From: Escherichia coli
Lineage (GTDB): Bacteria > Pseudomonadota > Gammaproteobacteria > Enterobacterales > Enterobacteriaceae
Direction: 5' to 3' (one strand)
NCBI RefSeq assembly: GCF_044324785.1
Contig: NZ_CP172127.1
Length of the DNA stretch: 64,000 nt
Part shown: piece by piece, positions 3,715 to 28,539 of the stretch
How the letters are laid out: each line of letters opens with the position of its first letter
Numbering within the stretch: position 1 is the stretch's first letter
The notes under the pieces: model-generated
Seen by the model: only the letters and a program-made list of their open reading frames with translations
The model's database searches: none
What the model was told of the DNA's origin: nothing
Made by a program: the position numbers and the translations under genes

Positions 3715-4202
3715 TGAAATCGTTAATTATCGTTAATCCGGCTGACTGTATTGGCTGCCGTACTTGTGAAGTGGCCTGTGTGGTCGCTCACCCTTCAGAA
3801 CAGGAGTTGAATGCCGATGTCTTTTTACCCCGGCTGAAGGTACAGCGACTGGACTGCATCAGTGCGCCGGTGATGTGCCATCAGTGTGAAAACGCCCCTT
3901 GTGTTGGCGCTTGCCCCGTGGGAGCGCTGACGATGGGCGAGCAGGTGGTGCAGGCCAATTCTGCCCGTTGTATTGGCTGTCAGAGTTGCGTCAGTGCGTG
4001 CCCGTTTGGGATGATAACCATTCAGTCGTTGCCGGGGGATACCCGGCAACAAATTGTGAAATGCGATCTCTGTGAACAGCGGGAAGAGGGGCCTGCCTGC
4101 GTTGAATCTTGCCCGACACAGGCGCTGCAGTTGCTTACTGAAAGAGAACTCAGGCGAGTCCGCCAGCAGCGTATTGTTGCCAGCGGTGAGAATCCTCTCT
4201 GA
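3711..4202 (+). CDS. ygfS: 4Fe-4S ferredoxin-type protein
   Basis: 163 aa with four CxxCxxCxxxCP-type cysteine clusters; start overlaps ygfT stop (ATGA), consistent with a ygfST operon. Confidence 0.85.
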
Positions 4203-6974: not shown

Positions 6975-8375
6975 TTAATCCATCTCTTCCGCTGAGGTAA
7001 TACCAGGCAGAACGTTTTCCTGTCGGTAGCCACCAGGGAGGATAATATTTAATAAAATCGCAGTTAACCCGCCAGCACAAATAGGGTTTTCAACTAGTAC
7101 ATAAATAGAGGCTGGCAATATTTTAAAAATTTCGGGATCGTAGGAGACGCCAAGCCCTAAACCTAAAGAAGTGGCGACAATAAGTGTTTCTCGGCGCTTT
7201 AAACCGTTGGTGATGATGATGCGAATCCCTGCGATGGCAATCATGGAAAACATCAACGTCATTGCGCCTCCCAGAACTGCCGAGGGAATGGTCGTGAAGA
7301 AGCCGCCAATCATCGGAAACAAACCGAGGATAACCAGCATTACCGCGATGGTTCGCCCGACATAACGTGAAGCGACGCCAGTCATCTGAATAACCCCATT
7401 ATTTTGCGCAAACGTGGTTAAGGGTAATGAACCGACAGCGGAGGCGATAACAGAAACCAGACCATCTGCCAGCACGCCGCCTTTCAGTCGGGACTGATAC
7501 TCTTCCCCCTGAATGGGGCGGCGAGAAACCATTGCCGTGGCGGTGATATCGCCGACAGCTTCCAGCACGCTAAGCAAATAAATCGTGCCAACCACCAGGA
7601 ACTGATGGAAGCTGAAACTAAACCCGTATTTGAACGGATGCGGGATGGTGATTAACGGCAAATTGCGCATACTGCTGAAATCCACCATACCCAGGCATAA
7701 CGACGCGATATAACCGACGCATAGCCCAATGGCGATCCCTCCCATGCGTAGCAACGGACTGCGACAGCAGTTAAAGCCGATCACCACAATCAAAACCAAT
7801 AAACCAACGCCGAGATGTTCGTAATTGCCGAACGTACCGCTGCTTTTGGCTGCAAATCCTCCACCAAAATCGATAATGCCGACTTTAATCAGGCTTAAGC
7901 CGATCATCAGTACCACAATACCGCTGACAGTAGGCGTAATAACCCGACGTAAATAGGGCAGGATAAAAGAAGAGCCGACAACCAGAAATGCGCCAACGAA
8001 GGAGACGCCGAAGAGCGACGACATGATTAACTCTTCGTGAAAACCGTCGCTTTTCATGCTGCTGCCCAGCGCAATCATGACCGTAACAAATGAAAAATTG
8101 ACTGACTGAATTGAGAGAAGACCAGAACCGACGATGCCGTAGCGGTTTACTTGTAACCAGGTACCAATACCAGAGGCGATCATCGCCATAGAAACCAGAT
8201 AAGCGGTTGTTTCAGCGGAAAGCTGTAAGGCCGCACCCACGATTAACGCGGGGGTTACCATCGGAACGAAAATTGCCAACAGATGGGTAATGGCACCAAC
8301 GAGAGCCTGATGAAAGGGAGGGCGATCCTCCAGTTCAAATATAAGGTCAGAACCTGCATGGTTTATATCAGACAT
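6975..8375 (-). CDS. xanQ: Xanthine permease (NCS2 family)
   Basis: ORF 6975..8588 trimmed to MSDINHAGSDLIFELEDRPPF... (466 aa) with AAGGAG RBS; multi-TM permease. Confidence 0.85.
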   Translation of the reverse strand: MSDINHAGSDLIFELEDRPPFHQALVGAITHLLAIFVPMVTPALIVGAALQLSAETTAYLVSMAMIASGIGTWLQVNRYGIVGSGLLSIQSVNFSFVTVMIALGSSMKSDGFHEELIMSSLFGVSFVGAFLVVGSSFILPYLRRVITPTVSGIVVLMIGLSLIKVGIIDFGGGFAAKSSGTFGNYEHLGVGLLVLIVVIGFNCCRSPLLRMGGIAIGLCVGYIASLCLGMVDFSSMRNLPLITIPHPFKYGFSFSFHQFLVVGTIYLLSVLEAVGDITATAMVSRRPIQGEEYQSRLKGGVLADGLVSVIASAVGSLPLTTFAQNNGVIQMTGVASRYVGRTIAVMLVILGLFPMIGGFFTTIPSAVLGGAMTLMFSMIAIAGIRIIITNGLKRRETLIVATSLGLGLGVSYDPEIFKILPASIYVLVENPICAGGLTAILLNIILPGGYRQENVLPGITSAEEMD

Positions 8376-8539
8376 CCCTTCACTCCTTTTAAAGTAAATT
8401 TGATCATCTGAATCAGTAAAATAAATTCCCACGAATTTGGGGCGCAGGACGCCTTGAGAACGGCTTATCTCATTTTCGCAGTCACTATTTAGTCGTCGTT
8501 CAAACAGAGAAACAGGCCGCCGAAGCGGCCATTTATTAT

Positions 8540-11410
8540 TTATATTTTTTCTAGCGCGGTGAGTATTTTCTCCGGTGTGAAATGCCATTCGCGTAACCAG
8601 ATGCCGCAGGCATCGTGAATTGCGGTAGCAATCGCCGGAGCTGCGCCATTTACACCGATTTCCGAGATCGATTTCGCCCCGAACGGGCCGACTTTATCGT
8701 CGCTCGGCACCAGCACAGCGCGGAAATCACGCGGAATGTCACCAATTTTCGGTGCGCCGTAACTGCGTAAATCACGCGTTAACGGGTGACCTTCGGCGTC
8801 ATAAATGATCTCTTCGCTCATACTGTGGCCGATAGCTCGCAGGGTAGCACCGTAGATTTGTCCCAATGCTAATTCCGGGTTGACCGGTGTACCGCAGTCC
8901 AGCAAGGCGTAGAATTTATCCAGGCGGATTTCACCCGTACGCGTATTGACGGCAACTTCAGCGAAGTTCGCGCCATACGGGAAGGCGAAATCAGGCGTGA
9001 TATAACTGCCAGTTCCCACCAGTGAACCAAAGCCGGTGCCGGTTTCGCCTTTATGGGCAATATCCCCGAAACTAACTTCGCCTTTCTTGCCGCGAACGAC
9101 GCCCGGCGTTGCTAGTTGAACATCTGCCACTGGCTCACCCAACATTTGTGCACCGTGGAACAGAATTTTCTCCCGCAGATTTTCTGCTGCCAAACGCGCC
9201 GCGTTACCCGAGAAGCAAGTACCGGACGAGGCATATGCGCCTTTATCAAACAACGCATGATCGGTATCACCGGAGATAACATGCACGTCCTGCGGTGGGC
9301 AGTGCAGCACTTCTGCTGCCAGTTTCGTCACCACAGTATCCAAACCAGTACCAATATCCGCACCGCCAGAATGAACGATAAAGGTGCCGTCCGATTCCAG
9401 TTTGATCATGCAGTTAGCCTGATCGATATCCGGGATCCCTGATTTCTGCATGATAATGGCGACGCCACGACCGATGTGCCAGTCACCGTTTTGTGGTTTT
9501 GGTGAAGACCATTGGATCATCTCGCGACCCTGACGCAGGATCTCTTCCAGTGCGCAGCTGGCGGCGGAAGGAACGGAGGTCGGCGCTTTACCTTCACCGA
9601 TTGCACCGAGAATTTTCAGCTCTTGCCCTTCGTGTACCCGGTTACGTTCGATAATTTCCAGTTGGTCGATCTGTAACTGTTCAGCCAGTTCCGCTAATGC
9701 CATGGTGATAGCGAAGTTACCTTTCGGTGCGCCATAACCCTGATAAGCACCATTTGGGCAAATGTTGCTGTAGTAGGTGGTGACCTGAAAATCGACGTTA
9801 TCGCACGGATATAACGGCAGCGACAGCGCCGGTCCGTTACACGGTACGGTGAGTGAGTGGTTGCCGTAAGGGCCAGTGTTGGCGCGGAAATCCATCTTCA
9901 CTGCCGTCAGGCGACCATCTTTTTTCGCTCCCAGTTTGACGGTGACTTTCGCGACGTGACGAGAGGTGTTAGCAATAAACTCTTCTTCACGGGTGTAGCG
10001 GAACAGTACCGGACGCCCGGTCACGCAGGTTGCCCAGGCGCACACTTCTTCCAGCAGGATGTCCTGTTTGGAACCAAAACCGCCGCCAACTCGCTCTTTA
10101 ATGACATGAACTTTATGCTGTTTCATGCCCACGAGGCGCGCGACCTGGCGGCGTAAGTGCCATGGTACCTGGGTGGAGGCGTGGATAACCAGACGATCGC
10201 CGTCCATACGGGTAAAGCAGATATGAGTTTCAGTCGGGCACTGCTGCGCCTGCGTTGAGTTATAGGTTCGCTCAATGATCACATCGGCATCGGCAAAGCC
10301 TTTGTCCATATCGCCGATATGACCATGAATACTGGCGGCGATATTTTTACGGGGGCGAGAACCGATCGGGAAGTTGATGATCATATGCTCGCCGCGCTGG
10401 GCTGCATGGCTGTTATCGTCTTCCAGAGTATCTGGCGCACCAGCAACATACACCACCGGTTCATCGTGCACGACAGGCGCATCTTCCGCCATTGCTTCGT
10501 CGATCGACATTACAGGTTTAAGCACTTCATATTCAACGTCGATGAGCTTCAGTGCTTCGAGCGCAATTTCTTCACTTTCTGCGACGACCGCAGCAACGCG
10601 ATCGCCGACGTGACGCATTTTCTTGCCGAACATACGGCGGTCAAGCGGTGACGGTTCCGGTGCGCTCTGACCGCCCGGGGTATAGTAGATATCCGGGCAA
10701 TTCAGGTGAGTAATAACGTGAACAACGCCCGGTAAGGCTTCAGCTTTGCTGACATCCAGATGAGTAATCAGTGCGTGAGCGTGTGGGCTACGTAACATTT
10801 TAATGACGCAGGCGTCAGCCGTTACGCGGTCTTCAACATAGCAGGGTTTCGCCTGCACCATTTTCGCGGCATCAGTTTTAGGATAATGCTTACCAATGAC
10901 TTCAAGGTCATCGCGGAAAGTTGGAGCTATATCAATGGTGGCCTGCGGATTATTTTTACGTGCAACCGCCAGTTCAATGACCTGATAGTATTGTTGCCAG
11001 CCTGCATCGCGGCTGAACAAACCAGAAAGCGCGTCGTCGATCTCTTCGCGGGTCGGTGCGGCAATGCGATCGAGAAGATCGGTGATAATCAGAGCCGCAG
11101 CTGGATCGTTATAACCAGACTGCACCACGCCAACATCAACCATTGCCTGTTGAACCAGACTTAACTCGTTCCATTTGCCCAGAGACTCTGCGGTACGAAT
11201 ATCTGCCTTCTCTAACTGTGCGGCGATAAGCAAGGACGCGTTAACGATATTACCGTTACAGATAATTGCGTCAGAACCGGCAAACCCGAATCCATCATCG
11301 CTGTTGCGTACAGAGTGCATTCCCATGTTAAACAACAGCTTTTGCACGTTTTCGCCTGGATTAACGGTTAGCTCCTGAGGCGCGCCATTTAAAGTAAAGT
11401 GGATGATCAT
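8540..11410 (-). CDS. xdhD: Molybdenum-containing hydroxylase, fused [2Fe-2S] and Mo-cofactor-binding subunit (xanthine dehydrogenase family)
   Basis: 956 aa; N-terminal 2Fe-2S cysteine pattern and aldehyde oxidase/xanthine dehydrogenase-like body; length and synteny match K-12 xdhD. Confidence 0.85.
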   Translation of the reverse strand: MIIHFTLNGAPQELTVNPGENVQKLLFNMGMHSVRNSDDGFGFAGSDAIICNGNIVNASLLIAAQLEKADIRTAESLGKWNELSLVQQAMVDVGVVQSGYNDPAAALIITDLLDRIAAPTREEIDDALSGLFSRDAGWQQYYQVIELAVARKNNPQATIDIAPTFRDDLEVIGKHYPKTDAAKMVQAKPCYVEDRVTADACVIKMLRSPHAHALITHLDVSKAEALPGVVHVITHLNCPDIYYTPGGQSAPEPSPLDRRMFGKKMRHVGDRVAAVVAESEEIALEALKLIDVEYEVLKPVMSIDEAMAEDAPVVHDEPVVYVAGAPDTLEDDNSHAAQRGEHMIINFPIGSRPRKNIAASIHGHIGDMDKGFADADVIIERTYNSTQAQQCPTETHICFTRMDGDRLVIHASTQVPWHLRRQVARLVGMKQHKVHVIKERVGGGFGSKQDILLEEVCAWATCVTGRPVLFRYTREEEFIANTSRHVAKVTVKLGAKKDGRLTAVKMDFRANTGPYGNHSLTVPCNGPALSLPLYPCDNVDFQVTTYYSNICPNGAYQGYGAPKGNFAITMALAELAEQLQIDQLEIIERNRVHEGQELKILGAIGEGKAPTSVPSAASCALEEILRQGREMIQWSSPKPQNGDWHIGRGVAIIMQKSGIPDIDQANCMIKLESDGTFIVHSGGADIGTGLDTVVTKLAAEVLHCPPQDVHVISGDTDHALFDKGAYASSGTCFSGNAARLAAENLREKILFHGAQMLGEPVADVQLATPGVVRGKKGEVSFGDIAHKGETGTGFGSLVGTGSYITPDFAFPYGANFAEVAVNTRTGEIRLDKFYALLDCGTPVNPELALGQIYGATLRAIGHSMSEEIIYDAEGHPLTRDLRSYGAPKIGDIPRDFRAVLVPSDDKVGPFGAKSISEIGVNGAAPAIATAIHDACGIWLREWHFTPEKILTALEKI

Positions 11411-12186: not shown

Positions 12187-12236
12187 CTTCTTTCCTTATT
12201 TAACCCTCTTCCCAGCGGGAAGAGGGTATTTGTCAT

Positions 12237-18486: not shown

Positions 18487-20112
18487 ATGAATATTTTCAC
18501 AGAGGCTGCAAAACTCGAAGAGCAAAATTGTCCGTTTGCGATGGCGCAAATTGTTGATAGCCGAGGCTCGACTCCCCGCCATTCTGCACAAATGTTAGTG
18601 CGCGCCGATGGCTCTATCGTCGGTACAATTGGTGGCGGAATGGTTGAGCGGAAGGTGATTGAAGAGTCGCTTCAGGCATTGCAGGAGCGTAAGCCGCGAT
18701 TATTCCATGGACGTATGGCTCGTAACGGTGCGGATGCTGTCGGGTCAGATTGTGGAGGTGCAATGTCAGTATTTATCAGCGTCCATGGTATGCGTCCACG
18801 TCTGGTGTTGATTGGCGCGGGGCATGTCAACCGGGCGATAGCCCAGAGTGCGGCGCTATTAGGATTTGATATTGCCGTTGCTGATATTTATCGCGAAAGC
18901 CTCAATCCTGAACTATTCCCACCATCAACCACGCTTCTCCATGCTGAGTCGTTTGGTGCAGCAGTGGAAGCACTGGATATTCGCCCTGATAATTTTGTCC
19001 TGATTGCCACGAATAATCAGGATCGTGAAGCCCTCGACAAACTCATTGAACAGCCCATTGCATGGTTGGGGTTGCTGGCAAGTCGTCGCAAGGTTCAGCT
19101 TTTCCTGCGTCAATTGCGTGAGAAAGGCGTGGCTGAAGAACATATTGCCCGTTTACATGCGCCCGTTGGTTACAACATAGGTGCGGAAACGCCGCAGGAG
19201 ATCGCCATCAGCGTGCTGGCAGAAATATTACAGGTGAAAAATAACGCGCCGGGTGGGCTGATGATGAAACCTTCTCATCCTTCCGGACACCAGCTGGTGG
19301 TGATTCGCGGTGCGGGAGATATCGCCAGTGGTGTGGCGCTACGTCTGTATCATGCGGGTTTTAAAGTGATCATGCTGGAAGTGGAAAAACCGACAGTGAT
19401 TCGTTGTACCGTGGCGTTTGCCCAGGCCGTGTTCGATGGCGAAATGACGGTCGAAGGCGTCACTGCCCGCCTGGCAACCAGCTCTGCGGAAGCGATGAAA
19501 CTTACCGAACGCGGATTCATCCCTGTGATGGTAGATCCCGCCTGTTCATTGCTTGATGAACTGAAACCGCTTTGCGTGGTGGACGCTATTCTGGCGAAAC
19601 AGAATTTGGGTACGCGGGCAGATATGGCACCAGTAACAATCGCGCTTGGGCCGGGCTTTACTGCTGGGAAGGATTGCCATGCGGTAATTGAAACAAATCG
19701 CGGGCACTGGCTCGGTCAGGTGATTTACTCTGGTTGTGCGCAGGAGAATACCGGTGTTCCCGGCAATATTATGGGGCATACCACCCGACGGGTGATCCGT
19801 GCTCCTGCTGCAGGCATTATGCGATCCAACGTGAAATTAGGCGATCTGGTGAAAGAGGGCGATGTGATTGCCTGGATTGGTGAGCATGAAATTAAAGCAC
19901 CGTTGACGGGGATGGTGCGTGGCTTGTTGAACGACGGACTGGCGGTGGTCGGTGGTTTTAAAATTGGTGATATCGATCCACGTGGTGAAACGGCTGATTT
20001 CACCAGCGTTTCTGATAAAGCCCGGGCAATTGGCGGCGGCGTACTTGAGGCGTTAATGATGTTGATGCATCAGGGCGTGAAAGCGACAAAAGAAGTGCTG
20101 GAAGTGGCTTAA
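18487..20112 (+). CDS. yqeB: XdhC/CoxI-family molybdenum hydroxylase maturation protein
   Basis: 541 aa; Rossmann-like GAGHV and GAGDIASG motifs; synteny. Confidence 0.8.
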   Translation: MNIFTEAAKLEEQNCPFAMAQIVDSRGSTPRHSAQMLVRADGSIVGTIGGGMVERKVIEESLQALQERKPRLFHGRMARNGADAVGSDCGGAMSVFISVHGMRPRLVLIGAGHVNRAIAQSAALLGFDIAVADIYRESLNPELFPPSTTLLHAESFGAAVEALDIRPDNFVLIATNNQDREALDKLIEQPIAWLGLLASRRKVQLFLRQLREKGVAEEHIARLHAPVGYNIGAETPQEIAISVLAEILQVKNNAPGGLMMKPSHPSGHQLVVIRGAGDIASGVALRLYHAGFKVIMLEVEKPTVIRCTVAFAQAVFDGEMTVEGVTARLATSSAEAMKLTERGFIPVMVDPACSLLDELKPLCVVDAILAKQNLGTRADMAPVTIALGPGFTAGKDCHAVIETNRGHWLGQVIYSGCAQENTGVPGNIMGHTTRRVIRAPAAGIMRSNVKLGDLVKEGDVIAWIGEHEIKAPLTGMVRGLLNDGLAVVGGFKIGDIDPRGETADFTSVSDKARAIGGGVLEALMMLMHQGVKATKEVLEVA

Positions 20113-20120
20113 ATGAAAAT

Positions 20121-20150
20121 GGCCGGATGGTATTACCCACCCGGCCTTTA
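20121..20150. terminator. Hairpin between convergent yqeB and yqeA
   Basis: Imperfect inverted repeat ggccggatgg...ccacccggcc flanked by T-rich runs on both strands. Confidence 0.45.
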
Positions 20151-20152
20151 AA

Positions 20153-21085
20153 TTACTGACAAATCACCGTTCCGGTTTTGCCTTCAATCCCTTCTTTCGC
20201 TTTGCTCAATACGGTAATCAGTGCTTCACGACCTGCGCGAGAGCGAGCAAACGAGGCGGCAGCTTCCACTTTAGGCAGCATAGAACCTTTCGCAAAATGA
20301 CCTTCTTCGATAAAGCGTTCAGCATCACTTAATGACAGGCGATCGAGCCACTGTTCATTCTCTTTACCGAAGTTAATGGCCACTTTTTCTACCGCAGTCA
20401 GAATGATCAGCATATCGGCATCAATCATCTCTGCTAAACGGGCGCTGGCCCAGTCTTTATCAATAACCGCGCTGGCACCACGCAGATGGTTACCTTCACG
20501 AATAACAGGAATACCACCACCGCCAACGGTGATCACTACCTGGCCTGCATCTACCAGAGCTTTAACCGTTTCTTTTTCAATGATATCAACCGGTTTTGGC
20601 GAGGCAACAACACGGCGATAGCCGCGACCAGCATCTTCTTTCAGAGTGTAACCCTGTTTTGTCAGTTGCTCTGCTTCCTGCTCGGTAAAGAACGAACCGA
20701 TCGGCTTGGTCGGGTTGAGGAATGCCGGATCGTTAGCATCGACTTCGACCTGGGTAACCAGCGTTGCTACAGGTTTATTAATGCCACGAGAAAGCAGTTC
20801 TTCTCTTAAGGCGTTTTGTAGATCGTAACCAATATAGCCCTGGCTTAAGGCAACACAGACAGACATCGGCAGCATTGGCGAGTGCGCTTCAGTTTTTGCG
20901 GCAGCTTCAAAGGCCTGGTTAATCATGCCCACCTGTGGCCCGTTACCATGAGTGACGATGACCTCATGTCCCTGGGCAATTAAATCAACAATTGCCTGAG
21001 AAGTAATTTTTACCGCTTTCATTTGTCCGGCCAGGTCGTCGCCCAGCGCATTCCCGCCCAGGGCGAGAACAATTTTCTTACTCAT
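20153..21085 (-). CDS. yqeA: Carbamate kinase-like protein
   Basis: 310 aa; amino-acid kinase family N-terminus (KIVLALGGNAL); synteny. Confidence 0.85.
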   Translation of the reverse strand: MSKKIVLALGGNALGDDLAGQMKAVKITSQAIVDLIAQGHEVIVTHGNGPQVGMINQAFEAAAKTEAHSPMLPMSVCVALSQGYIGYDLQNALREELLSRGINKPVATLVTQVEVDANDPAFLNPTKPIGSFFTEQEAEQLTKQGYTLKEDAGRGYRRVVASPKPVDIIEKETVKALVDAGQVVITVGGGGIPVIREGNHLRGASAVIDKDWASARLAEMIDADMLIILTAVEKVAINFGKENEQWLDRLSLSDAERFIEEGHFAKGSMLPKVEAAASFARSRAGREALITVLSKAKEGIEGKTGTVICQ

Positions 21086-21132
21086 TTTTCCTCACTCATC
21101 ATTCTTGATTGTGTATAGATCCCTGGCAGTGG

Positions 21133-22518
21133 TTAGAGCACGGGAGGGACAAACGGTTTGCGTCGCAGGAATCGACCTCGCCCGGCTTTGCCTGTAAAGG
21201 TGCCGTCACAGAAAATCGTTTCACCACGGGATAAGGTTCTGACAATCGCGCCCTGACAGGTAAAACCCTCCCATGGCGAATAGTCAGCGTTGTCGTGGAG
21301 ATGGCGATGCTGAATTTGTTGGCTCTGACGTGGGTCGATAATCACCACGTCGCCATCGGAACCGGGCGCTAATAATCCTTTTTGCGGCCACAGGCCAAAC
21401 AGCCTGGCGGGCATCGCGCTGGTTAATTCAACAAAACGTTCCGGTGTTATACGTCCCGTCATTACGCCACTGGAAAACAGTAACTGCATGCGGTTTTCCA
21501 CACCGGGTAAGCCATTTGGGCAGCGACTGAAATCGCCTTTAGAAATTTGCAGGCGTTGAGCCATTGAGAACGTGCAGTGATCGGTCGCCACCACGTCAAT
21601 CGCACCATCGCTGATGCCACACCACAGTTTGTCCTGCTCGCGTACGTTACGCAGCGGTGGGCTAAGAATGAACTTCATGCCATCTTCTGTATCGTAACTG
21701 CGTTCGTCCAACAGGAGATATTGTGGGCAGGTTTCAACCCAGACTGGCTGGTGATTCGCACGGGCAAGACGCAGATAATCCAGACCTAAGCCGTTAGACA
21801 GGTGCACGATATAGAGCGGGGCGTTACCGGCAATTTGTGCCAGGTTAATCATGCGGGCGATGGCTTCCGCTTCGCATTCCAGAGGGCGACTCAAGGCGTG
21901 ATAGCGCGGCGCGGTTAACCCTGCGGCGATAAACTCCGCCCGCTTGCTGGCGATAGCTGCATCATTTTCCGGGTGCACGGTGGTCAGCGCGCCGGACTCA
22001 TGCAAGCGGCGTAACGCCTGCAAAACCTCGTCATCGTTGAGTTTGTATTGATAGGTTAAATAGAGTTTAAAACTGCTCAGTCCTTCTTCGACCATCATCG
22101 GAATTTCGTCGAGGATGGCGTGATTAATGTGCTGGATCACACCGTGAAAGCTGTAGTCGATGACCGCCTTATGGGCGGCATAGCCACGATAAACCTCCAG
22201 TTGATGGCGTAACCGACAGCCGTTTGGGCCAAATCCCATATGGTCAATAATGGTTGTTGTACCGCCACACGCAGCTGCGCGGGTACCGGTAAAAAAATCA
22301 TCACAACTGCGCGCGATGCCGACATCAATATTGAAATGCGTATGGACATCCACGCCGCCAGGGAAAACGTAACAGCCAGTGGCATCAATTTCTTCATACG
22401 GGAGCTGCGGCGAAATATTGTTGCCCAACTGGCGAACAATCCCGCTTTCAATCAGCAAATCCTGTTTGGCTTGTCCATCTGCGTTAACGACAGTGCCGTT
22501 TTTGATCAATACGCGCAT
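21133..22518 (-). CDS. hyuA: D-hydantoinase / cyclic amidohydrolase
   Basis: ORF 21133..22530 trimmed to MRVLIKNGTVV... (461 aa); HxH (DVHTHF) metal motif; synteny. Confidence 0.85.
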   Translation of the reverse strand: MRVLIKNGTVVNADGQAKQDLLIESGIVRQLGNNISPQLPYEEIDATGCYVFPGGVDVHTHFNIDVGIARSCDDFFTGTRAAACGGTTTIIDHMGFGPNGCRLRHQLEVYRGYAAHKAVIDYSFHGVIQHINHAILDEIPMMVEEGLSSFKLYLTYQYKLNDDEVLQALRRLHESGALTTVHPENDAAIASKRAEFIAAGLTAPRYHALSRPLECEAEAIARMINLAQIAGNAPLYIVHLSNGLGLDYLRLARANHQPVWVETCPQYLLLDERSYDTEDGMKFILSPPLRNVREQDKLWCGISDGAIDVVATDHCTFSMAQRLQISKGDFSRCPNGLPGVENRMQLLFSSGVMTGRITPERFVELTSAMPARLFGLWPQKGLLAPGSDGDVVIIDPRQSQQIQHRHLHDNADYSPWEGFTCQGAIVRTLSRGETIFCDGTFTGKAGRGRFLRRKPFVPPVL

Positions 22519-22526
22519 AGCAAACT

Positions 22527-22553
22527 CCAAAAACCCTCCGGCGAACCGGAGGG
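22527..22553 (-). terminator. Intercistronic hairpin plus T-run between ygeY and hyuA (possible attenuator)
   Basis: ccctccgg-cgaa-ccggaggg followed on the minus strand by TTTTTGGAG; the T-run overlaps the hyuA RBS. Confidence 0.4.
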
Positions 22554-22570
22554 GAATAAGTGAAGAGTAA

Positions 22571-23782
22571 TTATTCGGTTGCCAGCCAGCTTAACGGGAT
22601 TGCAGCGTACATCGCGGCACAGGTCACCAGGTGAGATTTCCAGGTTTTTTCGTTAGGTGCATGCGCTTCAGGTTCTTTACCCGGGCCAAAGCCGATCACC
22701 GGAATGCCGTGACGGCCCATGATAGATACGCCGTTAGTTGAGAAGGTCCACTTATCAACAACCGGCGCTTTGCCAAACAGCCCTTCGTAGGCATTCACCA
22801 GTGCTTTAACGGTGAAGTGATCTTCTTCCACTTTCCAGGTCGGGAAGTAGCATTCGGTTGGGTAAACCAGGCCAGTCCAGGACGGACGGTCGTAGTTGTA
22901 CATAGAAACAACCGCGTTAGCTTTCTGTACTGCAGGCAGGGCGCGGATTTCGTCCAGCGCGCCTTCCCAGGTTTCGCCCCAGGTCAGACGGCGGTCAATA
23001 GAGACGGCGCAGCTATCTGCTACTGCGCAACGGCTTGGGGATGTGAAGAAGATTTCAGAAACGGTGAGGGTGCCTTTGCCGAGGAATTCGTCATAACCCA
23101 GACGTTGGGAGAGTTCTTGTAATTCGCCAAGAATCGGACCCATTTTGAAAATGGCGTTGTCACCGCGTTCTGGTGCAGAACCGTGGCAGCTAACACCCTG
23201 AACATCAATACGAATTTCCATACGACCGCGTTGACCACGGTATACCTGGCAATCAGTCGGTTCAGTACTGACCACAAATTCCGGGCGAATGCCGGATTGT
23301 TCAATAATGTACTGCCAGCACAGACCGTCGCAGTCTTCTTCCTGCACCGTACCGGTAACCAGCAGGGTATATTCATCTTCCAGACCGAGGTCTTTAATGA
23401 TTTTACCGGCATAAACCATAGAGGCCATGCCGCCTTCCTGGTCGGAAGTACCGCGACCACCGATCAGTTCATCAGTTTCCATGCCTTCGTACGGATCGAA
23501 GTCCCAGTTTTTGATGTTGCCAATGCCGACGGTATCAATATGAGCGTCCATTGCCACCAGACGCGGGCCGTGGCCGATATAACCGAGAACGTTGCCCATC
23601 GGGTCGATTTCAACTTTATCGAAGCCGACTTTTTCCATCTCTTCTTTAATACGATGTACTACGCGTTTTTCATCGCAGCTTTCACTGGGAATAGCAACCA
23701 TATCGCGCAGAAAGCGAGTCATGTCTGCCTGGTAATCTTTTGCTTTTTCAAGAATCAGTTTGAATGGAATATTCTTAGCCAT
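22571..23782 (-). CDS. ygeY: M20-family peptidase (ArgE/DapE-like)
   Basis: 403 aa; M20 metal-binding pattern; synteny. Confidence 0.85.
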
Positions 23783-23839
23783 TATTTTTCTCCAGATTTT
23801 TTACTCCCCGTTTTGCGGGGAGCAGTTCCAATAGGGTGA

Positions 23840-25036
23840 TTAAGGTGCTACAGCGTGTTTGCCTTCCCAGACAACTTCGCGGTAGTGCTTCACGTCTGTG
23901 TCGCCTTCAGTGCTGATAACCAGCACTACGGCATCTTTGTTCAGCGCCAGTTTTTCCATCAGGCTTTGACGTTGCGGGTGATAATGAACCGCTGCGAGAA
24001 CGCCCAAACCGACAGCGCCAGATTCACCGGAGATGATGCGTGGATCGTTGCCGTACGGATTACCCAGTACGCGCATACCTAATGCGGCAACGCTGTCCTG
24101 GCAGGAGATGAATTGGGTGGCGCAGTTACGTAGGATTTCCCAGCCCAGCGGGTTAGGTTCGCCACAGGCCAGGCCTGCCATGATGGTGGCCATATCACCG
24201 CCAACGTTGACGATGTCGCCTTTGACGCCAGAGCGATAAATACAGTCAGCTTTGTCAGGTTCAACAATAATGCTGTGCAGATTTTGCGGGCTGTAGACGT
24301 CGACCAGATAACCCAGCACACCACCAGCCATTGCACCGACACCGGCTTGCAGCAGAACGTGCGTCGGGGTTACGCCCATTTCACGCATTTGCTCGACGGC
24401 TTCATCTGCCAGTGTTGCGTAGCCTTGCATGATCCAGGTTGGGATTTTGGTGTAACCTTCCCAGGCGGTATCTTGCACCACTTCCCAGCCGTGCTGCTGC
24501 GCGTGTTGCATGGTCAGGCGAACGGTATCGTCATAGTTCATATCCGTGACGATGCACTCGGCACCGAGGTTCAGAATGGCGTCAACGCGTTCCTGAGCAG
24601 AACCTTTCGGCATGTAAATCACCGCATTCTGTCCGAGTTGCTGTGCTGCCCACGCCACACCGCGCCCGTGGTTGCCGTCGGTGGTGGTCGCGAAAGTCAT
24701 TTTTTCGCCGATGGCATTTTTCAGGTGCTCAAATGACAGCGTTTCGATATCAAGATGATATTTTTCGCACAATAATTGAGCGATGGCGTATGCACCGCCG
24801 AGCATTTTGAAGGCGTTCAGACCGAATCGTTTTGATTCGTCTTTGACGAGAATTTTCTTCACACCAAAAAGGTTTGCGAGATCGTCCAGCGCACAAAGCG
24901 GTGTTGGGCGATAACCAGCAATTTTCTGGTGGAACTGGCGCGCCAGTTTGGCCTGGCTTTGCGAAAAGAGCGGTGATGTTTCGCCGTTGAAAAATTTGTT
25001 ATCGGCGATATCAATCTTCAATGAGAAAACGGACAT
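23840..25036 (-). CDS. ygeX: PLP-dependent 2,3-diaminopropionate ammonia-lyase
   Basis: 398 aa; PLP-lysine region (NAFKMLGG); synteny with K-12 ygeX (dpaL). Confidence 0.85.
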   Translation of the reverse strand: MSVFSLKIDIADNKFFNGETSPLFSQSQAKLARQFHQKIAGYRPTPLCALDDLANLFGVKKILVKDESKRFGLNAFKMLGGAYAIAQLLCEKYHLDIETLSFEHLKNAIGEKMTFATTTDGNHGRGVAWAAQQLGQNAVIYMPKGSAQERVDAILNLGAECIVTDMNYDDTVRLTMQHAQQHGWEVVQDTAWEGYTKIPTWIMQGYATLADEAVEQMREMGVTPTHVLLQAGVGAMAGGVLGYLVDVYSPQNLHSIIVEPDKADCIYRSGVKGDIVNVGGDMATIMAGLACGEPNPLGWEILRNCATQFISCQDSVAALGMRVLGNPYGNDPRIISGESGAVGLGVLAAVHYHPQRQSLMEKLALNKDAVVLVISTEGDTDVKHYREVVWEGKHAVAP

Positions 25037-25093
25037 ATCCTATCCTTTTGGCCTCTGGAAATAGAGGGCCGACCAGCTGATCGGCCCGAGGGG

Positions 25094-26284
25094 TTATTTC
25101 ACGCGTTCTTGCGCTTCTTTCAGCAGTTGCTCGAGCAGTGCACCTGGTTTGGCGTATTTACGGGACAGGATCATCGCGGCGATGATATAAGGCTTCCAGC
25201 TGGCTTCTTTGTAGGTCGCGATACGGTATTTTTCGAATACGCCTTCAGTCACTTCACCTTCTTTGCAGGATACGCCGCTGATATCAGCTGGCAGGCAGTG
25301 CATGTACAGGGCTTCGCCATCACGGGTCAGTTCCATCATCTCTTCGGTGCAATGCCAGTCTTTGTGCTGAGCGTTCTGCGCCAGACACTGTTTTTCCAGT
25401 GCTTTTAAGCCTTCGTGATCGTTAGCGCGCAGCAATTCAGTACGCTCTTCCATCACTTTGTAAGGTGCCCATGACTTCGGATAAACGATGTCTGCGTCTT
25501 TGAAGGCTTCTTCCATGCTGGTGACCTGACGGAAGCTACCGCCGGAGGCTTTAGCATTGTTTTTAGCGACTTCAACGACATCCGGGATCAGGTCGTAGCC
25601 TTCCGGATGGGCCAGGGTGACATCCATACCGAAGCGAGTCATCAGACCGATGATGCCTTGTGGTACAGAGAGCGGTTTGCCATAGCTTGGGGAGTAGGCC
25701 CAGGTCATGGCGATTTTTTTACCTTTCAGGTTTTCCAGTGAACCAAAGTGTTCACGTAACCATGCGAGGTCAGCCATTGACTGAGTCGGGTGGTCAATAT
25801 CGCATTGCAGGTTCACTAAAGCCGGACGCTGCGGCAGTACGCCCTGCTTGTAGCCGTCATCAAGTGCAGCGCCAACTTCACGCATATAAGCGTTGCCTGC
25901 GCCCAGATACATATCGTCACGAATACCGATGGCATCGGCGCAGAAGGAGATCATATTGGCGGTTTCACGCACGGTTTCGCCGTGAGCGATTTGTGATTTG
26001 CCTTCGTCGAGATCTTGCTGTGCAAGGCCGAGCAGGTTAAGCGCGGAAGCATAAGAGAAGCGGGTACGGGTGGAGTTGTCGCGGAATACGGAAATACCTA
26101 ATCCACTATTAAAGACTTTGGTTGAGATGTTTTCAGCACGCAGTGCTTTTAATGCTGCGGCAACGTCCAGTACTTGTTTCAGTTCATCTGGCGTCTGTTC
26201 CCACGTTAACAAAAAATCTTTCTCGTGAAGGTGAGAGGTCAGCGAATTGATATCCTTAATCAGCTCATTAACAGTTTTCATCAT
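25094..26284 (-). CDS. ygeW: Carbamoyltransferase (ATCase/OTCase family)
   Basis: 396 aa; carbamoyl-phosphate binding STRTR and HCLP motifs present. Confidence 0.85.
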   Translation of the reverse strand: MMKTVNELIKDINSLTSHLHEKDFLLTWEQTPDELKQVLDVAAALKALRAENISTKVFNSGLGISVFRDNSTRTRFSYASALNLLGLAQQDLDEGKSQIAHGETVRETANMISFCADAIGIRDDMYLGAGNAYMREVGAALDDGYKQGVLPQRPALVNLQCDIDHPTQSMADLAWLREHFGSLENLKGKKIAMTWAYSPSYGKPLSVPQGIIGLMTRFGMDVTLAHPEGYDLIPDVVEVAKNNAKASGGSFRQVTSMEEAFKDADIVYPKSWAPYKVMEERTELLRANDHEGLKALEKQCLAQNAQHKDWHCTEEMMELTRDGEALYMHCLPADISGVSCKEGEVTEGVFEKYRIATYKEASWKPYIIAAMILSRKYAKPGALLEQLLKEAQERVK

Positions 26285-26376
26285 AAAGTCCCGGTAGTGG
26301 AATGACAGGCAAAGAGGTTTATTTCACTGTGACTTGCCAAAAGTGATTGGTCTTTTCACAGCTATACCTGGGACTA

Positions 26377-26391
26377 ACAATAACTATGCCA
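26377..26391 (-). promoter_or_regulatory. Candidate sigma54 (-24/-12) promoter for ygeW
   Basis: Minus-strand TGGCAT-N5-TTGT (consensus TGGCAC-N5-TTGC; one mismatch in the -12 element) about 95 bp upstream of ygeW, next to the divergently encoded sigma54 activator ygeV. Confidence 0.3.
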
Positions 26392-26760
26392 GAATTATCC
26401 AAGCGGCTGCAAAAGACTAATTTGACGGGTAATGTGTGGGGTTGATCACAAATTGATGCCAGCTTCTGGTTGTTTGTAAAATACGAAAACGTTTGGCTTT
26501 TTTTATCGCGTTATTTATTTGCTGCTAAGTATCAGAAATAAGATAAAGGGGCAGGTTATCCCTCGTCAGTTTGATAAACTCACCGCCGTAATTCTCATAT
26601 TGATATAGAAATGTGATATCTCTTCCATAATTTCATTAGAAAGTGATAAAAATCTTATGTTTTTATCAAAGCCAATTTCGTCTGAGTTAATATCATCATG
26701 ATCTGTGAACCATCAACGTCTTCAATGATCGACTTTTAAGTAAGTCTGGAAGGTAAAGCT

Positions 26761-28539
26761 ATGGAGCTTGCTACTACGCAGTCAGTACTGATGCAAATTC
26801 AACCGACAATTCAGCGTTTTGCCAGAATGCTTGCCAGCGTTTTGCAGCTTGAGGTTGAGATCGTTGATGAAAACTTGTGTCGCGTCGCCGGAACGGGCGC
26901 GTATGGGAAGTTTCTTGGTCGCCAGTTGAGCGGCAACTCACGCCTGCTCCGCCACGTCCTGGAAACGAAAACTGAAAAAGTTGTGACACAATCTCGCTTC
27001 GATCCCCTTTGCGAAGGTTGCGATAGTAAAGAAAATTGCCGTGAAAAAGCATTTCTGGGTACGCCTGTCATTTTACAGGATCGTTGTGTTGGGGTGATAA
27101 GTTTGATTGCCGTTACCCACGAGCAACAAGAACATATCAGTGATAATTTACGCGAATTTTCTGATTACGTTCGCCATATATCCACCATTTTTGTTTCGAA
27201 ACTTCTGGAGGATCAGGGGCCAGGAGATAACATCAGTAAAATATTCGCGACCATGATCGATAATATGGATCAGGGCGTATTAGTTGTTGATGATGAAAGT
27301 CGGGTTCAGTTTGTTAATCAGACTGCCTTAAAAACACTCGGTGTTGTGCAAAATAATATTATTGGGAAACCTATCCGTTTCAGACCATTAACATTTGAGA
27401 GTAATTTTACCCATGGACATATGCAGCATATTGTTTCGTGGGACGATAAAAGTGAATTAATCATTGGTCAATTGCATAACATTCAGGGCCGACAATTATT
27501 TTTAATGGCGTTTCACCAATCGCATACCAGTTTTTCTGTAGCAAATGCACCTGATGAACCGCATATTGAACAATTGGTTGGCGAGTGCCGTGTTATGCGG
27601 CAATTAAAACGACTCATTAGCCGTATTGCACCCAGCCCATCCAGCGTTATGGTGGTTGGTGAAAGCGGCACGGGTAAAGAAGTCGTCGCCCGTGCAATCC
27701 ATAAGTTGAGCGGAAGACGGAATAAACCTTTTATTGCTATCAACTGTGCCGCGATTCCGGAGCAGCTTCTGGAGAGCGAACTGTTCGGTTATGTTAAAGG
27801 CGCATTTACTGGCGCTTCTGCCAACGGTAAAACAGGGTTGATTCAGGCGGCGAATACGGGCACGCTGTTTCTCGATGAAATAGGTGATATGCCATTAATG
27901 TTGCAGGCTAAATTACTGCGCGCTATTGAGGCGCGTGAAATTCTGCCGATTGGTGCCAGTAGCCCAATACAAGTCGACATCCGCATCATTTCTGCAACTA
28001 ATCAGAATTTGGCCCAGTTCATTGCCGAAGGTAAATTCCGCGAAGATCTCTTCTACCGACTTAATGTTATCCCGATAACTCTTCCACCGCTGCGTGAACG
28101 TCAGGAAGATATTGAACTACTAGTGCATTACTTTTTACATCTGCATACCCGTCGTCTGGGATCGGTTTATCCTGGCATTGCTCCTGATGTCGTCGAAATA
28201 TTGCGTAAGCATCGTTGGCCCGGAAACCTGCGCGAGTTAAGCAATTTGATGGAATATCTGGTTAACGTTGTTCCTTCAGGTGAAGTTATCGATAGCACGC
28301 TATTGCCGCCAAATCTGCTGAATAATGGCACAACGGAACAAAGTGATGTAACAGAGGTCAGCGAGGCGCACCTCGCACTCGATGATGCGGGCGGCACGGC
28401 GCTGGAGGAGATGGAAAAGCAAATGATCCGCGAGGCGCTTTCACGTCATAACAGCAAGAAGCAAGTTGCTGATGAACTGGGCATCGGCATTGCTACGCTC
28501 TATCGCAAGATTAAAAAATATGAGTTGTTAAACACATAA
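26761..28539 (+). CDS. ygeV: Sigma54-dependent transcriptional activator (enhancer-binding protein)
   Basis: 592 aa; AAA+ core with Walker A GESGTGKE and the sigma54-contact GAFTGA motif; C-terminal HTH. Confidence 0.85.
   Translation: MELATTQSVLMQIQPTIQRFARMLASVLQLEVEIVDENLCRVAGTGAYGKFLGRQLSGNSRLLRHVLETKTEKVVTQSRFDPLCEGCDSKENCREKAFLGTPVILQDRCVGVISLIAVTHEQQEHISDNLREFSDYVRHISTIFVSKLLEDQGPGDNISKIFATMIDNMDQGVLVVDDESRVQFVNQTALKTLGVVQNNIIGKPIRFRPLTFESNFTHGHMQHIVSWDDKSELIIGQLHNIQGRQLFLMAFHQSHTSFSVANAPDEPHIEQLVGECRVMRQLKRLISRIAPSPSSVMVVGESGTGKEVVARAIHKLSGRRNKPFIAINCAAIPEQLLESELFGYVKGAFTGASANGKTGLIQAANTGTLFLDEIGDMPLMLQAKLLRAIEAREILPIGASSPIQVDIRIISATNQNLAQFIAEGKFREDLFYRLNVIPITLPPLRERQEDIELLVHYFLHLHTRRLGSVYPGIAPDVVEILRKHRWPGNLRELSNLMEYLVNVVPSGEVIDSTLLPPNLLNNGTTEQSDVTEVSEAHLALDDAGGTALEEMEKQMIREALSRHNSKKQVADELGIGIATLYRKIKKYELLNT

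Follow-up and report, generated by a model that had tools for sequence, protein, structure and literature searches.

A conserved RNA hairpin between ygeY and hyuA in the anaerobic urate operon of Escherichia coli: a candidate leaky terminator and exonuclease barrier

Leaky terminators inside operons are known from T1 of rpsU-dnaG-rpoD and from the rplL-rpoB attenuator. Frameworks for internal terminators and for protective intercistronic hairpins in E. coli have also been published (PMC5927463, PMC10667835). In the decay barriers of malE-malF, Rhodobacter puf, and menBCE, a stable and structurally conserved stem-loop lies 3' of the proximal cistrons (PMC5927463, PMC10667835). The papBA hairpin precedes the distal ribosome-binding site (RBS) by a few nucleotides, and for it a model of 5' protection after RNase E cleavage is documented (PMC5927463).

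The pathway by which gut bacteria degrade urate anaerobically (the 2,8-dioxopurine pathway) was solved recently, and strains that lower urate are now being engineered with it; its lower half is encoded by the ygeW-yqeA operon. Kasahara et al. described ygeW-arcC as one operon, and a published table assigns hyuA, like ygeW, ygeX, and ygeY, to the YgeV iModulon (PMC12133099); other literature speaks of a 'ygeWXY operon' (PMC10602906). Such disagreement would be expected from a leaky internal stop, and an internal stop would likewise explain why databases differ between a ygeWXY and a ygeW-yqeA operon. In the present study, we analysed a hairpin in the spacer between ygeY and hyuA. The element is new and uncharacterised; its kind, operon punctuation, is ordinary and well known. 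We consider it about an even bet (probability roughly 0.5) that this constitutive hairpin forms the 3' end of the ygeWXY mRNA, acting as a leaky terminator in Escherichia and as an exonuclease barrier generally, and that it lowers the level of hyuA-yqeA mRNA relative to that of ygeWXY.

In the window (the whole stretch of 64,000 nt that was analysed), ygeW, ygeX (dpaL), ygeY, hyuA, and yqeA (arcC) are minus-strand genes spanning 26284 to 20153. According to the open reading frames and the RefSeq annotation of identical loci, ygeY is 23782..22571 (-) and the ATG of hyuA begins at 22518; positions 22519-22570 are exactly the 52-nt spacer between them. A TTG at 22530, proposed as the hyuA start by an ORF finder, was rejected because it is neither annotated nor conserved. 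The coding strand reads UAA-UUACUCUUCACUUAUUC-CCCUCCGG-UUCG-CCGGAGGG-UUUUU-GGAG-UUUGCU-AUG, with the following parts:

22571..22573 (-), stop codon TAA of ygeY, from the RefSeq annotation of identical loci
22554..22570 (-), single-stranded pyrimidine/AU-rich segment of 17 nt, UUACUCUUCACUUAUUC, from the stop codon to the hairpin
22546..22553 (-), 5' arm of the hairpin, CCCTCCGG as DNA and CCCUCCGG as RNA
22542..22545 (-), loop UUCG (DNA TTCG), the site of variation among E. coli alleles
22534..22541 (-), 3' arm of the hairpin, CCGGAGGG, containing an SD-like GGAGG sequestered by the stem
22529..22533 (-), U5 tract (TTTTT), abutting the stem
22525..22528 (-), Shine-Dalgarno (SD) sequence GGAG of hyuA, 6 nt 5' of the ATG and not part of the hairpin
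22519..22524 (-), TTTGCT, from the SD to the ATG
22516..22518 (-), start codon ATG of hyuA

The 3-kb region around the junction has a match in 5170 of 5426 complete E. coli genomes, and the spacer occurs at one place per genome in 5164 of the 5426. The junction is 100% identical to that of O157:H7 strains, and its intergenic part is identical in K-12 MG1655.

The hairpin at 22553..22534 (-) has 8 bp, seven of them GC pairs, and a UUCG loop. Its folding energy is -16.6 kcal/mol and its ensemble frequency 96% (z = -3.84; none of 200 shuffles folded equally well). The stem is of the kind found in intrinsic terminators (GC-rich, about 5-14 bp, short loop), and a consensus scan listed the hairpin as terminator-like. 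When the spacer was shuffled, a hairpin of -11 kcal/mol or lower with at least five U in the next 8 nt arose in 14 of 20,000 cases; about nine sites in the 64-kb window, counting both strands, have this combination. The hairpin with its U-run is not a product of chance, and the earlier note was right in describing a GC-rich hairpin followed by a U-run and the GGAG of hyuA. Membership in the REP/BIME family or another class of dispersed palindromes was ruled out, because the covariance model described below (R1) gives one sense-strand match in the window; the sequence is also, presumably, unlike the REP consensus.

To follow the element across species, we scanned one genome per species and obtained 80 loci with hyuA, 74 of which have ygeY directly upstream. 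These 74 junctions come from Enterobacterales, Aeromonas, Photobacterium, and one betaproteobacterial metagenome-assembled genome; about 55 other genomes, mostly Enterobacterales, entered the comparison of hairpins and tails. A hairpin of -12 kcal/mol or lower is present at 84% of the 74 junctions. In nearly all Enterobacterales genomes, the spacer is 43-64 nt long and contains a perfect GC hairpin of 8-12 bp (-15 to -24 kcal/mol), which starts 8-17 nt past the stop codon and ends 11-21 nt ahead of the ATG. The distance from the hairpin end to the ATG is nearly fixed in Enterobacteriaceae, at 12-16 nt; with a range of 11-16 nt nearly all members of the family are covered, and their linker from hairpin to SD is 1-6 nt. 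The stems themselves are diverse (CCCUCCGG/CCGGAGGG, UCCCGCCGC/GCGGCGGGA, GCCCCGCAC/GUGCGGGGC, and AACCCCGAAGG/CCUUCGGGGUU).

A MAFFT alignment of 39 junctions analysed with RNAalifold gave no structure, as the stems were out of register; therefore, we used a covariance model with ten in-register seeds, to which 34 Enterobacterales junctions were aligned. Paired cells amounted to 97%, compared with 76.5% in shuffles, a pairing somewhat inflated because the alignment was fitted to the structure, and both the slid controls and the stems found independently in each species agree with it. Eight of the nine pairs had changed on both sides, that is, in a compensatory manner, and the covariation score was 0.504, against 0.164 for shuffles and at most 0.073 for slid partners. 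At the base of the stem, three C-G pairs hardly vary (conserved in 30, 33, and 34 of 34 junctions), the upper stem covaries, and neither the loop nor the upper stem has a conserved sequence. The wobble cells comprise 11 U·G or G·U against 2 C·A, which indicates that the folded molecule is the sense-strand RNA; a DNA palindrome or an antisense-strand structure is disfavoured by the same count and by the plus strand, which has no U-run at this junction. Among the sampled E. coli alleles, which are about 6% apart in the flanking codons, changes in the element are confined to the loop (UUCG, UUCA, UUUA, and UUUG) with one exception, a G-to-U change at the stem base that makes the U-run longer. Judged by its pattern of substitutions, the hairpin is under selection as an RNA structure, and it has what characterises a decay barrier, namely a stable, structurally conserved stem-loop 3' of a proximal cistron.

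Inserted sequence enlarges the spacer to 215-363 nt in four species: Escherichia sp. E1V33 (locus L007, 3771-4000), E. whittamii (L056, 3783-4000), Klebsiella indica (L013, 3741-4000), and Serratia oryzae (L053, a 363-nt spacer). Three of these inserts contain palindromic repeats of the CCCTCTCCC...GGGAGAGGG(TTAGGGTGAGGGG) type; the fourth, in K. indica, shows no evident repeat of this type and apparently lies within the hairpin loop. In E1V33 and E. whittamii, the hairpin still adjoins the SD. We also observed that YgeY is far more conserved than HyuA of the same genome (for example, about 86% versus 69% identity in Aeromonas and 84% versus 66% in Photobacterium; tblastn, L007-L086).

The U-run is the variable part of the element. 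Tails were compared by counting U within 8 nt 3' of the last G-C pair, and the hairpin after yqeA served as an internal comparison:

ygeY-hyuA hairpin: median 4 U in 8 nt, at least 5 U in 14 of 55
ygeW-ygeX hairpin: median 3 U in 8 nt, at least 5 U in 6 of 50
hairpin after yqeA (operon end): median 5 U in 8 nt, at least 5 U in 31 of 50

Three or fewer U follow 27 of the 55 ygeY-hyuA hairpins, several genera having 1-3 U, so that a U tract is not kept at the orthologous sites. The tail is AACAUGGAG in Citrobacter sp. R56, UCAUGGAG in C. freundii, CCGGAG in Trabulsiella, CUGGAG in Yokenella, and UCUGGAG in the Kluyvera/Raoultella group. Escherichia has U5-6, with U6 in BH100 (one sampled E. coli allele) and E. 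whittamii, and the tail of Escherichia sp. E1V33 is UUUUCU. Outside Enterobacteriaceae, the hairpin is accompanied by U4-6 in Morganella (U5-6), Hafnia (U6), Enterobacillus (U5), and Serratia sp. Ag1 (U5, 3 nt off the stem). In Morganella morganii FAM24679 (L048, about 3960-4000), the U-run and SD form a unit, TTTTTCAGGAGTACC, that is tandemly duplicated directly 3' of the hairpin.

Intrinsic terminators have a U-rich tract of about 7-9 nt directly 3' of the stem; in E. coli the tail is UUUUU followed by GGAGUUUG, with five U in the first 8 nt. Its tail score is 4.71, the highest among the Enterobacteriaceae junction hairpins listed, and the median for hairpins after yqeA in the same genomes is 3.37; the E. 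coli junction and operon-end hairpins look equally terminator-like (UUUUUGGA versus AUUUUCAU). Since the U-run is not conserved across Enterobacteriaceae, termination cannot be the conserved function. At most, it would have been added in particular lineages, or it would be an ancestral trait that decayed as the spacer shortened up to the RBS. G residues at tail positions 6-7 should stabilise the RNA:DNA hybrid, and with a run of five U and then GGAG, termination may be weak or negligible. The proposal in the earlier note that a terminator stops transcription here is thus sustained only in part: terminator anatomy at a place inside an apparent operon makes a drop in transcription plausible, but the U-run is not the part conserved across genera.

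The other half of that proposal, that the terminator masks the RBS of hyuA, is contradicted by the predicted folds. The GGAG begins 5 nt past the stem and lies outside the hairpin, and in partition-function folds of the orthologous junctions the pairing between SD and hairpin is 0.00 in 38 of 38 species; a functional SD or start codon paired within the structure, the mark of an SD-sequestering element, was not found. Pairing of the SD with the upstream spacer is below that of shuffled-spacer controls in 33 of the 38 species, so the sequence looks selected for a free SD and not for masking. Single folds had suggested an outer helix between the SD and sequence after the ygeY stop codon, as for translational coupling; this was ruled out because native spacers pair with the SD less than shuffles do. 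A role of the hairpin as a general opener of the SD was not upheld across the 38 species either, the median SD accessibility being 0.28 for native sequences and 0.30 and 0.21 for two arm mutants (in silico). When the 3' arm was mutated in silico, 10 of the 38 species lost more than 0.2 in SD accessibility, among them E. coli, where it fell from 0.52 to 0.01.

The folds also bear on regulation. The hairpin forms with P of at least 0.96 in all upstream contexts tested, from -60 to -400 nt, and forcing its 3' arm open costs 13.4 kcal/mol. The sequence 5' of it consists of the ygeY coding region and the 17-nt spacer segment, with no leader ORF apparent by eye, and no Rfam match at E <= 1 was found in 20000-27000. 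As there is no competing antiterminator fold and no sensor, a regulated switch or attenuator is unsupported, and the regulated attenuation put forward in the earlier note does not survive these results.

Comparable hairpins are present elsewhere in the cluster:

25066..25087 (-), ygeW-ygeX hairpin, GGGCCGAUC-AGCU-GGUCGGCCC, 9-bp GC, -16.9 kcal/mol, no U tract
23802..23824 (-), ygeX-ygeY hairpin, UGCUCCCCG-CAAAA-CGGGGAGUA, -15.2 kcal/mol, then A5 and the SD
20121..20146 (-), operon-end terminator-like hairpin, GGCCGGGUGG-GUAAUA-CCAUCCGGCC then AUUUUCAUUU, between convergent yqeA and yqeB
12204..12226 (-), ssnA-ygfM hairpin, CCCUCUUCCC-GCU-GGGAAGAGGG, about -19 kcal/mol, no U-run

The ygeW-ygeX hairpin lies 6 nt past the ygeW stop codon and 29 nt ahead of the ygeX ATG. 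A hairpin of -12 kcal/mol or lower is found there in 73% of 70 genomes, mostly without a U-run, and the orthologous stems are visibly compensatory (GGCCGGCC, GGCUGGCC/GGCCAGCC, and CUCUGGCC/GGCCAGAG). At ygeX-ygeY the hairpin is less conserved, with a comparable one in 34% of genomes. The ssnA-ygfM hairpin, 10 nt past the stop codon and 17 nt ahead of the ATG, has the same geometry as that of ygeY-hyuA, with a C-rich 5' arm and a G-rich 3' arm; the hyuA-yqeA spacer contains no such hairpin. When the pathway was reconstituted in vitro, YgeW and YgeY were used 10-fold above HyuA, YgeX, and SsnA, and ygeW and ygeY each precede a conserved hairpin. This excess is compatible with a greater need for the upstream products, but it is only suggestive. 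That the hairpins at ygeW-ygeX, ygeX-ygeY, ygeY-hyuA, and ssnA-ygfM together constitute a decay/termination code setting stoichiometry in the urate cluster, perhaps read by a common RNA-binding factor that recognises the CCC/GGG base of the stem, is a speculative and rather unlikely extension.

Two further observations concern hairpins in the window. The convergent yqeA and yqeB genes end 40 nt apart (20113-20152) with one common hairpin at 20121-20146, and the corresponding gap in K-12 (3012394-3012613) is 220 nt, which means that K-12 has extra sequence there. A GGCCGC-loop-GCGGCC hairpin at 8515-8530, with U-rich tails on both strands, resembles a bidirectional terminator and is oddly placed, in or at the end of the overlapping minus-strand ORFs 6975..8588 and 8540..11410.

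How hyuA is transcribed bears on what the ygeY-hyuA hairpin can do. Searches with sigma70 and sigma54 promoter patterns gave no match in the 3' part of ygeY; together with the 52-nt spacer and the shared iModulon, this suggests that hyuA needs read-through from upstream. The best sigma54-like match in the region, a -24/-12 type sequence (TGGCATAGTTATTGTT, 26391..26376, minus strand, two mismatches), is located some 90 nt 5' of the ygeW ATG, which agrees with a published report of sigma54 binding between ygeV and ygeW (PMC8743547). We found neither the genes of the operon nor K-12 positions close to the junction in the supplements of three studies that mapped RNA ends in E. coli (Adams 2021, Dar & Sorek 2018, and the study on selective RNA processing and stabilization); this would be expected, since the operon is silent in standard media and under the published Term-seq and SEnd-seq conditions. 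A degenerate RNase E consensus, RN↓WUU, follows the hairpin in 19 of 38 species and precedes it in 3 of 38; E. coli has no match upstream. This asymmetry weakly favours protection of ygeWXY (malE type) over 5' protection of hyuA (papBA type), although it may merely mirror the U-rich sequence 3' of the hairpin.

From these results, we infer the following course of events. On the ygeW-ygeX-ygeY-hyuA-yqeA transcript, the stem-loop would set a 3' end for the ygeW-ygeX-ygeY part. With U5-6 after the 8-bp GC stem, RNA polymerase in Escherichia would terminate part of the time; termination would be leaky because of the short U-run and the GGA behind it, which should strengthen the RNA:DNA hybrid. Transcripts that read through would carry hyuA-yqeA, the folded hairpin leaving the SD free. 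On transcripts cut downstream, the hairpin would stop 3'-5' exonucleases in the manner of malE-malF or puf; in genera with an eroded U-run, this barrier function probably predominates. By either route, ygeWXY mRNA would exceed hyuA-yqeA mRNA, with no switch and no masking of the RBS. The ribosome footprint is such that the 17-nt gap should let the hairpin form clear of a ribosome terminating at the ygeY stop codon.

Other explanations look in part to hyuA itself. The hairpin may serve this gene by insulating the SD, by shaping a standby site, or by 5' protection after RNase E cleavage as in papBA, a possibility that we regard as unlikely but that deserves weight. The nearly fixed distance to the ATG in Enterobacteriaceae, with the SD linker of 1-6 nt, would fit a role tied to hyuA translation equally well; in the insert-enlarged spacers L007, L056, and L027 the hairpin still adjoins the SD; and the reduced pairing of native spacers with the SD (33 of 38 species), the loss of accessibility in 3' arm mutants (10 of 38, E. 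coli included), and the documented papBA model point the same way (PMC5927463). However, the insulation is not general (the medians of 0.28, 0.30, and 0.21), upstream RN↓WUU sites are rare (3 of 38), and the three upstream insertions are what chance predicts from the target sizes. In Hafnia, Aeromonas, Rahnella, and Buttiauxella, 20-38 nt separate the hairpin from the ATG, and the companion at ygeW-ygeX adjoins the stop codon, about 30-40 nt from the next ATG. It is improbable that the hairpin is instead an efficient terminator marking a true operon boundary, with hyuA-yqeA expressed from their own promoter. The term 'ygeWXY operon' (PMC10602906) and the result of the terminator scan are in keeping with this, and in Photobacterium and Aeromonas a spacer of 100-365 nt with one or two terminator-like hairpins leaves space for a promoter; but in E. 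coli much of the 52 nt between the genes is taken by hairpin and RBS, the 3' part of ygeY has no sigma70-like or sigma54-like match, hyuA shares the YgeV iModulon with ygeWXY, and the U-run is short and runs into GGAG.

If a small RNA or an RNA-binding protein, pathway-specific or global, used the hairpin as a binding site to control hyuA-yqeA, this would account for the nearly invariant basal C-G pairs below a covarying upper stem and for the similar hairpins with C-rich 5' arms in several spacers of the cluster. Yet the loop and upper stem carry no conserved sequence, and terminators too typically have GC-rich stem bases; we know of no candidate factor for this hairpin, and we judge such a site very improbable. 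Still less probable is a relic or neutral palindrome with no present function: erosion of the U-run in many genera would suit it, whereas the many compensatory changes that maintain the structure across families, and the near failure of spacer shuffles to yield such a motif, would not. Least probable of all is the regulated attenuator of the earlier note, stopping transcription and masking the hyuA RBS. A terminator-like motif does overlap the 5' edge of the RBS region, but the SD is outside the structure, no alternative fold or Rfam family was found, and the post-stop gap of 17 nt should leave the hairpin clear of the terminating ribosome; this model is largely refuted by the in silico folds.

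A constitutive 3'-end element for ygeWXY, whether by stopping transcription or by stabilising the message, would set the ratio of YgeW, YgeX, and YgeY to HyuA and YqeA. When the cluster is refactored or over-expressed, the element should be kept or removed deliberately. It also provides a clean case of a terminator-like hairpin in which the stem is conserved by covariation and the U-run comes and goes.

Compared with the systems described above, the ygeY-hyuA hairpin resembles the leaky internal terminators in combining an intercistronic GC hairpin with a U-run, in leaving the distal genes to read-through, and in a reduction that would be constitutive; unlike them, it is a candidate terminator, with a U-run of 5 nt that abuts the SD and is conserved in few genera. 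It resembles papBA in lying a few nucleotides upstream of the distal RBS with an AU/pyrimidine-rich single-stranded stretch before it, but E. coli has no upstream RN↓WUU site and just 3 of 38 species have one. With SD-sequestering operators and thermometers it shares a position near an RBS and an SD-like GGAGG in the stem, but that GGAGG is not the functional SD, and the real GGAG is predicted to be free. As in the decay-barrier operons (malE-malF, puf, and menBCE), a stable stem-loop follows the proximal cistrons, several hairpins occur per operon, and RNase E-like motifs lie downstream, here in half of the species examined (PMC5927463, PMC10667835); the malE-malF element is a REP repeat, whereas the ygeY-hyuA hairpin is single-copy in the window. 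The pattern in the cluster as a whole resembles that of multi-hairpin operons subject to programmed differential decay (PMC5927463) and to selective RNA processing and stabilization (PMC10667835).
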